A program made the translations under genes and the position numbers. DNA of 64,000 nt from the NCBI RefSeq assembly GCF_054482595.1, contig NZ_CM137008.1. One strand, 5' to 3'. Position 1 is the first letter of the stretch. Every line of letters starts with the position of its first letter. The notes beneath the pieces were generated by a model. It had not been told where the DNA came from. It did not search any database and was given only the letters and a program-made list of their open reading frames with translations. Shown here piece by piece: positions 57,991 through 62,577 of the stretch.

Positions 57991-59283
57991 TTACCTGTTT
58001 TCCCACAATCTCAGCATCGCTTTGTGTTCGTCTGTCAGCACAATCTGCGGGCGTCTGGCTCGAATATAGCTAATCGCTTCATTAACGGTTTTACAGTGTC
58101 CGTAACATAACAACCATGCCGCCACCACCAGCGCACCGCGCGATAATCCCAATGCACAATGGACCAGAACGCTGCCTTGCTCTTCGCGTAATGTTTCCAG
58201 CATCGCCACGGCCTGTCGGAGTTCCCTCTCTTCCGGAACCACCAGATCCAACATCGGTACACAGAAATAGAGTCGATCTTTTGTCTCTCGTCCTCGAGGG
58301 AATTCAAAGGTGACGTCCAGAACCGCATTCTGTGCCGGAATATGTCGTGGAAACGCCCCTAAATAAACACCAGCAGTCATTTTGCTCACCGGCTCCAGGC
58401 GACGACAAAACCAACGCATAGATAGCCACATCCCGATACGCCAGGGCAATGTCAGCCAGTAAACGGCGGGCGGGAGTTTCCCCTGACTATCTTTCCCTGT
58501 TGTTATCGCGCCAAGCCCACCGTACCCACGGCCAATAATGAGTAGCGATAATACTGGCCAACATAACCAGACTGACCACCATAACTGAACCATCATCATT
58601 AGCTCCATCAACACAATGCACGCGCACGCGCCTACGACATATGGCAGTGCTATTTTGATTCGACGTTGATCAGGTTTCTGATAATTCCAACGACGGTCGA
58701 CGGGTACCATCCAGTCAATCAACATACCTACCGCCAGCCCTGTGATGACATCAATAAAATGATGCTGCCAGGTTGTCAGCGTCGAAATGGCGATGAGTAA
58801 AAACCATCCGCCGCAGACTTTACGCCACTTCACAGCCAGATGCTGACGAAAGTGACGCCAAAGTAGCCAGCAGAGAATAATATGCAGCGAAGGAGACTGG
58901 TTATAGGGCAGATCAAACAGTTCAAGTTGCGAAAATAGCCATCCTGTCACCCCACTCACTTCAGGACGGATAAAGCTAAACTTCAGCGGGTAGAGAAAAA
59001 AACCGCAGCAGGTCATTACCGTTGCCAGAATAAGCCGGTGGACAAGTCGGCGCTGTTCGAATGTCGAGCTACAAACGAACAGCGAAAATCCATATAAAAG
59101 ATCCAGACTCCAGTAAGGAACAATAGTCCAGGGAAGAAAAGGGATCGCCGTTTCCCAACCGAATACCTGACTGGGGATATCATGGCTGTTAAGGTCCTGA
59201 ACCGCGGTGAACTGATTAAGAGATCCATAGGTGAAGAAGAAAAACGGGGACAGCAACAATAACCAGCCAGCGCCTTGTAGCAA
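57991..59283 (-). CDS. ynbD: Membrane protein with C-terminal dual-specificity phosphatase-like domain
   Basis: ORF track 57991..59382 overlaps ynbC; start is uncertain (TTG at 59283 gives about 430 aa, GTG at 59307 gives 438 aa); phosphatase-like HCxxGxxR-type motif [10 protein letters not shown]. Confidence 0.65.
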
Positions 59284-59296
59284 TACGTTCCGACGT

Positions 59297-61054
59297 TCAG
59301 TTATCACGACGCACCGCCATCGAAACCGTAAAAATACCCCACTCATCAATCCGTTGTGTGCATTTATCAAATCCGGCATCACGCACGAGTGAATCCATCT
59401 CCCCTTGCGAACGCACGCGCATTACCCACGGTTTACCATCTTTATGACTGGTTAACACCCCGGCAATCAGCTCCAGTTGTGGGTGCCACGGCTGCCCGGT
59501 GTAGAGGAGAATGCCGCCCGGTTCGATGGCATTGGCAAGACCTGCGAGTGAGTTTTTTACCTGCTCATTTTCGGGAAAAAGCTCATACAGGCCAGAGACA
59601 ATCGCCAGCGTAGGCCGCGGAGTTAACGCGCTGAGTTCCTCTGGGTTAAACGCATCGCCCTGTTCAAAACGCACCCGCCCAGACATTCCCCGTTGAGCAA
59701 TCATCTCTTGCCCCTGTGCAACATTTAACTCGCTGTAATCACGTAACAAAATATCGCTTACGGCAGGCTCGTTTGCCAGCGCATCCAGTACATAGCGCCC
59801 ATGCCCTGCGGCAATGTCAACCACGCGGACGGCTAAACCTTTGGCGTGGAGATCGGCAACGGCTTGTTTAATCAGTATTTGTAAATGGGTTTTGCGCTGG
59901 CGAATACCGCGCCAGCCAACACTGTTCAGGTAGATTTTGTCGATTAAGCGCCCGAATGCGTTACTACCTTGCGGTTGATTTTGATAGACATAATCCAGCG
60001 AACTGCCTGAATCAAAGCCGGTGCTCATTCCGAGATGCAGGCCCGCAGAGTGCGCCCCGAACAATTTCATCGCTTTACGCATAAAGCGATACGCCAAATC
60101 AACCGGCGATAATGGCACGGGTCCACCTGAAAGGAGCCGCCAGCGATCCGCTGATGGTCCAGTGCGGTCTTCATGCTGATAATCAAATTTTTGTGATTTG
60201 TTAGCATATAAGCGACTAATAAAGCTTTGCATTTTTTCAAATGCCAGCGCCCTGTTCTCTTCACCCAACGTGTCGTGATAAAAGCCTGGCAGCAGATGCA
60301 GCTCTTTGAGAGGGCTACGTAAACGCTGATAAAAATCGATCTGCGGTTGGCGATGCACCACATAGTCATCGCCTGATATCAGAAGTTGCGTGGGGAGCGT
60401 AATCGCCGCCGCATCGCTAACAATACGTTCAGACGTTTTATAGAGATCGAGCAAGATATTGACGGCAATCGCCCGTGTGATCAGCGGATCATTATTGAAA
60501 CTCGCCACCCGTTGCCGATCGTGGGTCAAATAGCGTCCTTGCACATAGGAATTAATAAAAAACAGACCACGCAGACGATGCCATAACGCCAGCGCAGGAC
60601 GCGCCAGCGGCACATACAATTTAACCTTAAAGGCCGGAGAAGCCAGCAGCAGCCCGCGAATTGCAGGCGCATAATCATGAACCCATGTGGCAACCAGCAC
60701 TGCGCCGACGCTCTGCGCGATCACTACCACCTCTTCCAGCCCAACCTGGCTGTCGCTGGCAGCAAAACGGACAAATTCATCGACATCCCGCACTGAACGC
60801 GCAAGAGATGGGCTATAACCACGCGGCCCCGAAGTTTTTCCATGCCCTCGGGCATCCCATGCATAAAAAGCAGTATCTGGCATCGCCAGTTCATCAACGA
60901 GATGTTGTAGACGACCAGAATGTTCATGACCGCGATGAAATAAGACGATGACCTTTTTCGCCCCGGACTGTAAAGCGGGCCAGTGCCGATAAAACAACGC
61001 TGTATTATCACTGGTGGTAAAAAAATGTTCCCCAGGGATGCGTGAATTTTCCAT
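59297..61054 (-). CDS. ynbC: Two-domain protein: alpha/beta hydrolase plus SAM-methyltransferase-like
   Basis: 585-aa ORF; synteny within ynbABCD. Confidence 0.8.
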
Positions 61055-61069
61055 TTTCTCTATTTTCCT

Positions 61070-61966
61070 TCAGTAACAGCAGTAGCGAATAAAATAAAAA
61101 AATACCGGAGCGGTGAAAATTAATGAGTCAATCCTGTCAAGGAGTCCGCCATGTCCTGGTAATAGTTTTCCGCTATCTTTAACACTAATATCTCGTTTGA
61201 TGGCTGACATCACTACATCGCCGCAAAAACCACTAATACCAATTAACAAACCCGCTAATAATGCCTGTAATGTATTTAGCGGTGTCAGCAACGGTCCAAT
61301 AATAAGTGACGCAATCATGGTGGTGATTACGCCCCCCACCAGACCTTCCAGCGTTTTTCCCGGGCTGACTTTGGGGACCACTTTTCTTCTGCCGCAGGAT
61401 TTCCCCCATAAATACTGTGCAATATCGTTTGACTCTGTTGTCGCCAAAAGAAATAACACCAGTAACGCCCCGCCCTGGGTATTTGTGGTTGGCAACATTA
61501 ATAACCAGGCGGCATGACTCAAGGCGAAAACGGTCATTATCCAGCCCCAAAAAATGGCGCTCACGGTATGCAGAAAACCGGAGGTATCACCTACTAAAAC
61601 TCGCCAGGTGGTTAATATCAGAAACCCAGCCAAAGGTATAAATAACAGAAACAGCTCAAAGCAATTAAAACCGATAAGCAAATAGTTAAGAGGAATAACC
61701 CAATATAACCAACGCGGAAAATGTACGGATATAAGCGTACAATATTCTTTCAATGCCAGAAAACTTATCAGCGCAAAAAACGTCAACGTCATCCAGCGTG
61801 GACCTGAAATCACCAGTGAAAAACAAATGACGATACCCCACCAGGTACGAATACGTAATGTAACTTCATCCTCTTTTCTCTCCGGTAACCGCCATACCCG
61901 AAAACGGTTTATCAGCGTTGCTAAAATTAACAACGCGAAAAGTGTTGCCAGAGATTTTTCCAGCAT
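61070..61966 (-). CDS. ynbB: CDP-diglyceride synthase (CdsA)-like membrane protein
   Basis: 298-aa hydrophobic ORF; CdsA-like C-terminal region. Confidence 0.8.
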   Translation of the reverse strand: MLEKSLATLFALLILATLINRFRVWRLPERKEDEVTLRIRTWWGIVICFSLVISGPRWMTLTFFALISFLALKEYCTLISVHFPRWLYWVIPLNYLLIGFNCFELFLLFIPLAGFLILTTWRVLVGDTSGFLHTVSAIFWGWIMTVFALSHAAWLLMLPTTNTQGGALLVLFLLATTESNDIAQYLWGKSCGRRKVVPKVSPGKTLEGLVGGVITTMIASLIIGPLLTPLNTLQALLAGLLIGISGFCGDVVMSAIKRDISVKDSGKLLPGHGGLLDRIDSLIFTAPVFFYFIRYCCY

Positions 61967-62577
61967 TATCTTTCAGCACTCATCAGGAGCACACTCCGAC
62001 AACGATTAATCGCAGTCCAGATAAGCAGAATTGAAGCAATGCCCCATAAAAGATTATTCCATTGCATCCACTGTGGATAAATGGCAACGGCCAGCCCCCA
62101 CAACCCAAATATTAACGCACGATCGCTTTTGCCGAATGGACCGGCATAACTGCGAATACCGTTAATCGTCTGCGCGAGTAAACCGCAAAACTCAGTCAAT
62201 ATGGTGAAAAATAACATGAGTATTACGAGTGATGCGTTACTTTCTGGTAAAAATAAAAACGGTAAATAGAGCGCAATATCGGAAATAACATCGCCAGTTT
62301 CATTCAAAATCGCCCCCAGACGTGTTTGCAGATTGCACTCACGCGCCAACATGCCATCCAGCGCATTGAGTGCCATACGGATAAAAAGCACGATGGGCAA
62401 TAGCAAAAAGAGGATGGGTTGTGCGACCAACATCAACAGCAATCCGGTAATAAGAGAAAGCGCCAGTGCAGCAAGAGTGATGTGATTCGCTGTAACATGG
62501 TGCTTATAAAGCCAAAACATCGTCGGCCTTAACAGCGACTGAAAGAGCGGTTTTATCTGGTAGAGCGTCATTATCAA
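61966..62577 (-). CDS. ynbA: CDP-alcohol phosphatidyltransferase-family membrane protein
   Basis: 203-aa ORF; D-G-x2-A-R...G-x3-D-x3-D-like motif; 1-nt overlap with ynbB. Confidence 0.8.
   Translation of the reverse strand: MIMTLYQIKPLFQSLLRPTMFWLYKHHVTANHITLAALALSLITGLLLMLVAQPILFLLLPIVLFIRMALNALDGMLARECNLQTRLGAILNETGDVISDIALYLPFLFLPESNASLVILMLFFTILTEFCGLLAQTINGIRSYAGPFGKSDRALIFGLWGLAVAIYPQWMQWNNLLWGIASILLIWTAINRCRSVLLMSAER

Follow-up and report, generated by a model that had tools for sequence, protein, structure and literature searches.

The described systems closest to ynbABCD, a four-gene operon of Escherichia coli, belong to several separate pathways. The phosphatidylinositol-phosphate (PIP) and archaetidylinositol-phosphate (AIP) synthases, such as PgsA1 of Mycobacterium tuberculosis and the archaeal AIP synthase, move the phosphatidyl group of CDP-diacylglycerol (CDP-DAG) onto a phosphorylated alcohol, after which the product is dephosphorylated, a two-step logic that the ynb genes appear to share. 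In mitochondria, phosphatidylglycerol is made by PGS1, which produces phosphatidylglycerophosphate (PGP), and then PTPMT1. At the outer face of the inner membrane, the phosphoglycerol transferase OpgB, the EptA-type phosphoethanolamine transferases and LpxT draw on a phospholipid or lipid pyrophosphate donor, and the lipid remnant is recycled. Further likenesses are to E. coli CdsA, to monoacylglycerol lipases, and to the sphingomyelin synthases (SMS) and Aur1. The operon considered here lies in a 64,000-nucleotide stretch of contig NZ_CM137008.1 (NCBI RefSeq assembly GCF_054482595.1), hereafter the window, of which positions 57500-63000 show 100% identity to several E. coli chromosomes. We lean, with modest confidence, towards reading ynbABCD as the E. 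coli version, reduced by two genes, of a proteobacterial module that makes a non-canonical, CDP-DAG-derived phospholipid processed on both faces of the inner membrane.

The genes already carry annotations, and work has been done on one of them, so that the bare finding of an operon of lipid-type enzymes, as given in an earlier, sequence-only reading of this DNA, is not new. That reading called the operon uncharacterised, which was an overstatement, given the published work on YnbB (CDP-DAG synthesis and the glycolipid MPIase), on the ynbA promoter PynbA (BglJ-RcsB) and on YnbD (complementation); its remark that the product is unknown holds, since the literature names none. A literature search on "ynbABCD" found no paper treating the four genes as one pathway, and a search combining the enzyme names gave nothing relevant. 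What is new is the recognition of the E. coli operon as a reduced six-gene module, the natural YnbA-YnbC fusions, the Asn substitutions in YnbA and the resemblance of YnbD to SMS and inositol phosphorylceramide (IPC) synthases.

The four genes were described as tightly packed on the minus strand, and their head-to-tail order is confirmed both by the sequence and by RefSeq, where the locus reads hrpA-azoR-ynbD-ynbC-ynbB-ynbA-ydbD-pdxI. Genes and domains are as follows:

61966-62571, minus strand: ynbA, 201 aa, ATG start
61070-61966, minus strand: ynbB, 298 aa
59297-61054, minus strand: ynbC, 585 aa
60257-60961, minus strand: ynbC N-terminal domain (aa 32-266), monoacylglycerol-lipase/lysophospholipase-like alpha/beta hydrolase
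59309-60232, minus strand: ynbC C-terminal domain (aa 275-582), class I S-adenosylmethionine (SAM)-dependent methyltransferase, Methyltransf_20
57991-59307, minus strand: ynbD, 438 aa, GTG start as called by RefSeq
58708-59307, minus strand: ynbD N-terminal membrane domain (aa 1-200), six helices, PAP2-superfamily fold of the sphingomyelin-synthase/Aur1 type
57994-58389, minus strand: ynbD C-terminal domain (aa 307-438), dual-specificity Cys-based phosphatase

Full-length YnbC homologues were found as 407 cluster representatives (E <= 1e-30), and a scan of one genome per species gave at least 579 module loci, of which 80 species loci were kept for counts of neighbouring genes. Beside ynbC, a YnbA gene occurs in 80/80 loci, YnbD in 78, YnbB in 64 and a PlsC-like acyltransferase (AcT; PF01553) likewise in 64, while a small membrane protein without a Pfam match was detected by BLAST in 36, probably an undercount. 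Adjacency of the genes is kept in Enterobacterales, Neisseriales, Burkholderiales, Rhodocyclales, Pseudomonas and Bradyrhizobium, so the ynbABCD arrangement is not due to chance. Three gene orders recur (the ynb genes are given by their last letter):

A-B-AcT-C-D-small: Citrobacter, Hafnia, Buttiauxella, Snodgrassella
A-C-D-(small)-AcT-B: Pseudomonas, Variovorax, Cupriavidus, Herbaspirillum, Zoogloea, Accumulibacter, Bradyrhizobium
A-C-D alone: Providencia, Proteus, Morganella, Xenorhabdus

The E. coli order, A-B-C-D, was seen in none of the 80 loci, and the E. coli operon is therefore derived and reduced. Clustering of the flanking open reading frames revealed no further conserved neighbour family. 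In two natural proteins, P0149 (927 aa) and P0123 (807 aa), YnbA is joined to YnbC, and in a deep clade with YnbC about 41% identical (L005, L093, L094), genes for CdsA-like and PAP2_3(-DSP) proteins still adjoin, YnbA being adjacent in one locus and fused in another. Taken together, the linkage across species, the deep-clade association and the fusions strongly support a functional link among the four E. coli genes. The core of the module is ynbA, ynbC and ynbD; ynbB and the acyltransferase look like a substrate-supply sub-module.

Several variants of the module were also recorded. Downstream of ynbD, many species encode the small membrane protein, of about 135-175 aa (e.g., L002, 13026-13433; L051, 13145-13600), which carries the motif YWALRVAFDAxLF or YQCWRLWLDNHYF; it has no Pfam or NCBIfam match, and E. 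coli lacks the gene. In the deep clade, genes for a patatin-like phospholipase and for one or two short-chain dehydrogenases are present in addition. More distant YnbC homologues (32-36% identical; L006/L007, 8001-9779; L095, 777-2531) occur without ynbA or ynbD, one of them adjoining genes for a ketoacyl synthase, a MaoC dehydratase and a ketoreductase, and another a methyltransferase of the PEMT/ICMT family. The copy in Vibrio fluvialis (L004, 9610-10008) is of enterobacterial type, with YnbC 77% identical; its ynbB is cut to 132 aa and the acyltransferase gene is absent, so that the copy may have arrived by transfer and decayed afterwards. Of the two copies in Citrobacter sp. Cu233, L010 is intact and L020 degraded.

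YnbA, a membrane protein, had been assigned to the CDP-alcohol phosphatidyltransferases, and its match to Pfam PF01066 (CDP-OH_P_transf; profile positions 3-148 of 152) lies above the gathering cut-off at 34.9 bits against 22, a low score for the family. Its nearest NCBIfam models are those for AIP synthase (70.6 bits; the equivalog NF045883 has a cut-off of 180), PIP synthase (41.8 against 170, NF040950) and PgsA (28 against 109), all far below their cut-offs, and the best match among solved structures is the mycobacterial PIP synthase. The PIP/AIP route is thus its best relative by both family and structure, but YnbA departs from it at the active site. The family signature is D1-x2-D2-G-x2-A-R ... 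G-x3-D3-x3-D4, whereas YnbA reads N69-x2-D72-G-x2-A-R-E ... G86-x3-N90-E-x2-D94-x3-D98, plus G-K148-S-D-R151, with Asn in place of D1 and D3. N69 and N90 align with Asp in PIP synthase and cholinephosphotransferase, and both are invariant in 81/81 YnbA orthologues, down to about 42% identity, as are E78, E91, D98 and the G-K-S-D-R motif; the two Asn and that motif are also retained in the deep clade and in the YnbA-YnbC fusion proteins. Such strict conservation points to an active site that is altered, Asn-Asp-Asn-Asp, yet probably working and not decayed.

In M. tuberculosis PgsA1, Mg-1 is held by D1 and D3, the latter being a ligand of Mg-2 as well, and D4 has been proposed to act as the catalytic base (PMC6506517), so that both substituted positions of YnbA correspond to Mg-1 ligands. 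Enzymes that use inositol-phosphate always carry Arg or Lys directly after D4 (PMC6506517), but in the 81 orthologues the residue after D94 is a hydrophobic Val, Ile or Leu. R152 and R155 of PgsA1 line the inositol-phosphate pocket, and the basic phosphate pocket includes R155 and R195 (PMC6506517); K148 and R151 of YnbA align with R152 and R155, so that the pocket is only partly retained. A further difference from the PIP/AIP route is that no inositol-phosphate synthase gene is linked to the ynb module in the 80 loci, and because the module has no gene for any special head-group precursor, the acceptor has to be guessed. YnbA is a natural test case for enzyme mechanism, as it breaks a textbook "invariant" motif and is nonetheless strongly conserved.

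YnbD was described as a membrane protein with a phosphatase-like domain, which is correct as far as the phosphatase is concerned (DSPc, PF00782, 93 bits), but the protein has two catalytic domains, the second being SMS/Aur1-like. The predicted model is confident (mean predicted local distance difference test, pLDDT, of 91.5) and comprises eight membrane helices, an amphipathic stretch and the C-terminal phosphatase domain. The latter, tethered by two further transmembrane helices (aa 214-269), belongs to the dual-specificity phosphatases (PF00782) by its invariant C384-x5-R390 loop and acid D354, and its profile matches PTPMT1. A homologue search with the two-helix and phosphatase module gave mainly E. 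coli and Shigella fragments, with no informative new architectures.

The N-terminal membrane domain is below threshold for Pfam PAP2_3 (20.1 bits against a cut-off of 27), and distant YnbD homologues exceed the cut-offs for both PAP2_3 and PAP2. Phosphatases of the PAP2 type, such as PgpB and LpxE, have the motifs C1 K-x6-R-P, C2 P-S-G-H and C3 S-R-x5-H-x3-D. In YnbD, C1 keeps R-P while the Lys is not conserved, C2 is P-S-L-H, and C3 is S-T-x5-H-x3-D, lacking the Arg; the motifs NQxP139-S-L-H142 and S175-x6-H182-H183-x2-D186 are invariant or nearly so. In structure the domain is nearer to SMSr and Aur1 than to PgpB or LpxE, at a sequence identity of just 10-13%, and it shares with sphingomyelin synthases and Aur1 the PAP2_3 type, the His-His-Asp arrangement and the missing C1 lysine. 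The transferase role is thus suggested by the fold, and YnbD differs from those enzymes in being fused to a cytoplasmic phosphatase. A plain PAP2 phosphatase was considered and judged less likely than a transferase-type domain, given the ranking of folds and the failed complementation described below.

Topology was drawn from the AlphaFold2 helices and the distribution of charge. In the model, the basic, Lys/Arg-rich loops 155-163 and 201-213 share a side of the membrane with the C-terminal soluble domain, and both PAP2 motifs would accordingly be on the other face. The transferase-type site would then probably face the periplasm and the phosphatase domain the cytoplasm, and the active site would be extracytoplasmic, as in sphingomyelin synthases and Aur1. 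Neither E. coli nor Pseudomonas is known to make ceramide, so the acceptor of YnbD must differ from that of SMS and Aur1. The small membrane protein often encoded beside ynbD recalls the Aur1-Kei1 pair, an analogy of our own. Periplasmic head-group transfer by OpgB, EptA or LpxT is a likeness of function alone: LpxT is a PAP2 enzyme, but OpgB and EptA are of the alkaline-phosphatase superfamily and not of PAP2. If YnbD does work in this way, its architecture implies that bacteria use the sphingomyelin-synthase/Aur1 type of enzyme outside sphingolipid metabolism.

The pairing of a PIP-synthase-like transferase with a PTPMT1-like phosphatase also raises the question of whether the operon is simply a redundant route to phosphatidylglycerol, with YnbB acting as CdsA, YnbA as PgsA and the YnbD phosphatase as a PGP phosphatase. 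The motif region of YnbA does resemble PgsA as well as PIP synthase, the phosphatase profile fits, and glycerol-3-phosphate is an abundant acceptor for which no dedicated synthesis gene would be required. YnbA, though, falls far short of the PgsA models, and YnbC and the SMS-like domain are left without a role. The phosphatase differs from the mitochondrial enzyme in being membrane-tethered and fused to a second catalytic domain, and in vivo YnbD could not stand in for the PGP phosphatases of E. coli, as it did not complement a pgpA pgpB pgpC conditional mutant (PMC7413402); YnbB likewise does not complement a cdsA knockout (PMC6362211). We regard this as a highly improbable explanation.

YnbC was read as a fusion of a hydrolase and a methyltransferase, and both domains are recognised by Pfam, as Hydrolase_4 (PF12146, 228 bits) and Methyltransf_20 (PF12147, 506.5 bits), in a predicted model of high confidence (pLDDT 93.3). 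The hydrolase domain belongs to PF12146 by its score, its putative triad of Ser115 (in AQSVG), Asp230 and His260, and its monoacylglycerol lipase fold, and is a close structural relative of the monoacylglycerol lipases. It differs from these and from the lysophospholipases (human MGLL, M. tuberculosis Rv0183) in its nucleophile motif, AQSVG and not GxSxG, and in being always joined to Methyltransf_20 and sometimes to YnbA too. The methyltransferase domain belongs to PF12147 by its score and its SAM motifs, with D413-I-A-A-G-H-G-R-Y as the SAM-binding motif, in which D-x-A-x-G-x-G-x-Y, like R-D-Y, is invariant (alignment A4). Profile searches with this domain gave weak matches confined to the core fold, namely to unnamed methyltransferases, CmoM, a farnesyl-diphosphate methyltransferase and cyclopropane fatty acid synthase, and a literature search on Methyltransf_20 by its Pfam and InterPro names found no paper and no characterised member. 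A 2026 paper still lists YnbC as a putative hydrolase/methyltransferase. Polyphosphate builds up in a transposon mutant of ynbC, for which polarity or stress may be the cause (PMC2435150).

With a lipase-like enzyme in the operon and an acyltransferase in 64 of the 80 loci, the module could alternatively serve phospholipid remodelling or turnover: the lipase would deacylate, the acyltransferase re-acylate, the backbone be recycled through YnbB and YnbA, intermediates be trimmed by the phosphatases, and an acyl chain be modified by the methyltransferase. The structural closeness to monoacylglycerol lipases is in keeping with this, as are the patatin-like phospholipase and short-chain dehydrogenase of the deep clade, the fatty-acid-synthase-like genes beside one distant YnbC homologue and the weak match to cyclopropane fatty acid synthase. 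It remains an unlikely reading, since remodelling has no need of a CDP-alcohol transferase fused to a lipase-methyltransferase, nor of a head-group transferase fold joined to a phosphatase, and the invariant core of the module is ynbA, ynbC and ynbD, not the acyltransferase.

The description of YnbB as a CdsA-like cytidylyltransferase is borne out by Pfam PF01148 (CTP_transf_1, 236.6 bits) and by the C-terminal signature SxxKRxxxxKDxGxxxPGHGGxxDRxDS, kept in 67 orthologues. On the CdsA equivalog model it scores 105 bits against a cut-off of 385, and it is therefore a paralogue and not CdsA itself. Like CdsA it has the conserved catalytic signature and is reported to make CDP-DAG, but its N-terminal half is unrelated and it cannot sustain bulk phospholipid synthesis. 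In the literature, YnbB is reported to synthesise CDP-DAG in vitro, its overproduction to raise or restore MPIase and not bulk phospholipid synthesis (PMC6362211; PMC7018664, citing Sato 2019), and, under CdsA depletion, MPIase to be rescued while bulk phospholipid is not (PMC6362211; PMC7018664). A ynbB knockout alone has no phenotype, with the MPIase level unchanged (PMC6362211).

These reports, together with the published phrase "dedicated to MPIase biosynthesis" and the reported cold induction of ynbB along with cdsA, are the basis for supposing that the operon, or at least ynbB, makes MPIase, with YnbB producing CDP-DAG and next N-acetylglucosaminyl (GlcNAc)-pyrophosphoryl-diacylglycerol, and so backing up CdsA. 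Neighbouring genes might contribute, for example YnbA by moving phosphatidyl onto GlcNAc-1-phosphate, and, by our own inference, the two Asp-to-Asn changes would make its site less negative and better suited to an anionic phosphate nucleophile. The same rescue, however, is obtained with any active CDP-DAG synthase of the CdsA family, yeast and human enzymes included, and may thus be generic. MPIase is reportedly essential, yet the ynbB knockout leaves its level unchanged and about 21% of complete E. coli genomes lack the operon or carry it broken. There is no glycosyltransferase in the module across the 80 loci, conservation of the module extends to Pseudomonas, Burkholderiales and Rhodocyclales, and ynbA, ynbC and ynbD are nowhere mentioned in the MPIase papers. 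We consider this explanation distinctly unlikely, and the genomic context calls into question whether YnbB is "dedicated" to MPIase, as its conserved partners are a transferase, a lipase-methyltransferase and a phosphatase/transferase, and not sugar-handling enzymes.

The reading that we prefer, a module for a non-canonical CDP-DAG-derived phospholipid, could operate as follows. In most other species phosphatidate would be supplied by the adjacent PlsC-like acyltransferase, the gene for which E. coli has lost, and with CTP YnbB would turn phosphatidate into a CDP-DAG pool of the pathway's own, the step reported in vitro. YnbA, as a PIP-synthase-like enzyme with an altered metal site, would transfer phosphatidyl to an anionic, probably phosphorylated, acceptor, to judge from its relatives and its basic pocket. 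Since YnbC is joined to YnbA in some organisms, it presumably acts in the step just before or just after YnbA; an acyl or ester group may be removed or exchanged by the lipase-like domain of YnbC, and a methyl group added by its SAM domain. The cytoplasmic phosphatase of YnbD would, by analogy with PTPMT1 acting on PGP, strip the phosphate from the head group. On reaching the outer leaflet, the lipid would meet the SMS/Aur1-like domain of YnbD, which from its fold and topology could pass the phospho-head group to an envelope acceptor or, alternatively, cleave it off, with release of diacylglycerol. The operon would be switched on only under particular conditions, in line with BglJ-RcsB activation and the reported cold induction, and be dispensable in the laboratory. 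The product is probably a methyl-modified, non-canonical phospholipid or head-group donor. Apart from the synteny, this scheme is favoured by the nearest relatives of YnbA, whose phosphorylated product needs a phosphatase, by the profile match of the YnbD phosphatase domain to PTPMT1, and by the purifying selection seen on the four genes within E. coli. A pathway for a modified phospholipid or head group had been proposed from the sequence; the synteny, the YnbA-YnbC fusions and the intact motifs strengthen that proposal, which is still inferential.

A number of observations weigh against this scheme. YnbA lacks two of the four canonical metal-binding Asp as well as the Arg after the fourth, and could be inactive or perform a different chemistry. 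The matches of the YnbC methyltransferase domain, confined to the core fold, point to no substrate, and no gene for a head-group precursor synthase is linked in the 80 loci. The periplasmic orientation of YnbD is deduced from the model and the positive-inside rule, and overexpressed YnbD rescues neither C55-PP (undecaprenyl pyrophosphate) nor PGP phosphatase mutants, its function being stated as unknown (PMC7413402). E. coli is without the acyltransferase and the small membrane protein found in most other species, in about 21% of complete E. coli genomes the operon is missing or damaged, and the literature reports no lipid product or lipid phenotype for any ynb gene.

The phospholipid repertoire of E. 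coli is usually held to be complete, and an extra, conserved and self-contained pathway would add a missing branch of envelope biology. The combination of an Asn-Asp-Asn-Asp transferase, a lipase-methyltransferase sometimes fused to it, and an SMS/Aur1-like domain with a dual-specificity phosphatase goes beyond known systems. It could be speculated further, although we think it rather doubtful, that E. coli and hundreds of other Proteobacteria carry a silent pathway for a class of phospholipid undescribed in them, in which the charge-altered Asn-Asp-Asn-Asp transferase joins phosphatidyl to an unusual anionic acceptor, possibly giving a pyrophosphate or methyl-phosphate head group, the lipase-methyltransferase tailors the product, and a periplasmic transfer of the SMS/Aur1 type hands the head group to an envelope molecule as a non-sphingolipid acceptor.

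Within E. coli, the operon is present over 80% or more of its length in 4283 of 5426 complete genomes and in part in about 340, and 804 show no match to it. Among the damaged forms, one has lost an internal segment running from ynbA into ynbC, another carries IS2 within ynbB, and in a third a larger deletion, from ynbD to pdxI, has joined the remnants of these two genes and removed ydbD too; records showing damage are L091 (NZ_CP149449.1), L092 (NZ_CP148323.1) and NZ_AP022540.1. Against an allele of 95.6% identity, the ratios of non-synonymous to synonymous substitution rates (dN/dS) were 0.24 for ynbA, 0.32 for ynbB, 0.11 for ynbC and 0.24 for ynbD. The operon is thus dispensable and repeatedly lost, and under purifying selection where present.

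It might be argued from such losses that, in E. coli alone, the operon is a decaying and functionally silent remnant of the six-gene module, a view compatible with the proposed lipid pathway for the module as a whole. Two conserved components are missing, deletions recur in the genomes with no match or a partial one, truncated ynbD fragments are numerous in E. coli and Shigella, dN/dS reaches 0.24-0.32 for ynbA, ynbB and ynbD, and no growth phenotype has been reported in the literature. On the other hand, the operon, at 80% or more of its length, with its four frames counted intact, is present in about 79% of genomes, all dN/dS values are well under 1 and that of ynbC is only 0.11, every catalytic motif is intact, and the published BglJ-RcsB activator site is kept at the ynbA promoter. 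Nor are the missing genes obligatory, because Providencia, Proteus and Morganella retain only ynbA, ynbC and ynbD, without the acyltransferase and the small protein. Decay is real at the level of the E. coli population, but it leaves the intact, constrained copies unexplained, and the reading as a decaying, silent remnant is in our view very unlikely.

PynbA is activated by BglJ-RcsB (PMC3950696), and expression of ynbA, ynbC and ynbD is reported to co-vary as genes of the BglJ/RcsB regulon. Being tied to cold and to Rcs, a regulator of envelope stress, the operon may have a part in membrane adaptation. Silencing of the ynbA promoter by H-NS was also considered and was dropped, as PMC3950696 does not show it for ynbA.

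At the level of the transcript, the four genes follow each other closely. The ynbA ATG is preceded at 6 nt by an AAGGA ribosome-binding box; the operon limit first drawn at 62577 corresponds to an in-frame TTG, but the annotated ATG, at 62571, lies two codons downstream of it. The 1-nt overlap noted earlier between ynbA and ynbB is seen in the sequence TAATG, where the ynbB start codon overlies the ynbA stop. A gap of 15 nt, with AGGA inside it, separates ynbB from ynbC. For ynbC and ynbD, an overlap or translational coupling had been predicted, and with the RefSeq GTG start the overlap is 11 nt; an alternative TTG eight codons downstream would instead leave a gap of 13 nt. The maximal ynbD frame reaches 59382 (463 aa), longer than the RefSeq call and representing the longest open reading frame only. 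Base composition differs between the halves of the operon, with GC of 0.43-0.45 over ynbA, ynbB and ydbD (window 61000-64000) and 0.49-0.53 over ynbC and ynbD. Two non-coding features border the operon:

62572-62740, minus strand: AT-rich ydbD-ynbA intergenic region of 169 bp, read from the sequence; ynbA promoter, with the BglJ-RcsB activator site according to the literature
57952-57981, no strand: perfect 11-bp hairpin in the 53-nt gap between the convergent ynbD and azoR, from the sequence and RNA folding

A simple sigma-70 scan called no promoter in the ydbD-ynbA intergenic region, and an Rfam search of the region matched no known RNA family. Upstream of ynbA and on the same strand lies ydbD (62741-64000), annotated as a DUF2773 bactofilin, which continues past the end of the window; it is frameshifted in one strain (L091, NZ_CP149449.1), and a 2026 study counts it among the genes that may help to detoxify methylglyoxal. 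At the other end, the ynbD/azoR hairpin folds at -25.1 kcal/mol (z = -3.6), a value equalled by 0/200 shuffles. It was not listed by a terminator scan because it has no U tract, and it is probably the shared end of both convergent transcripts.

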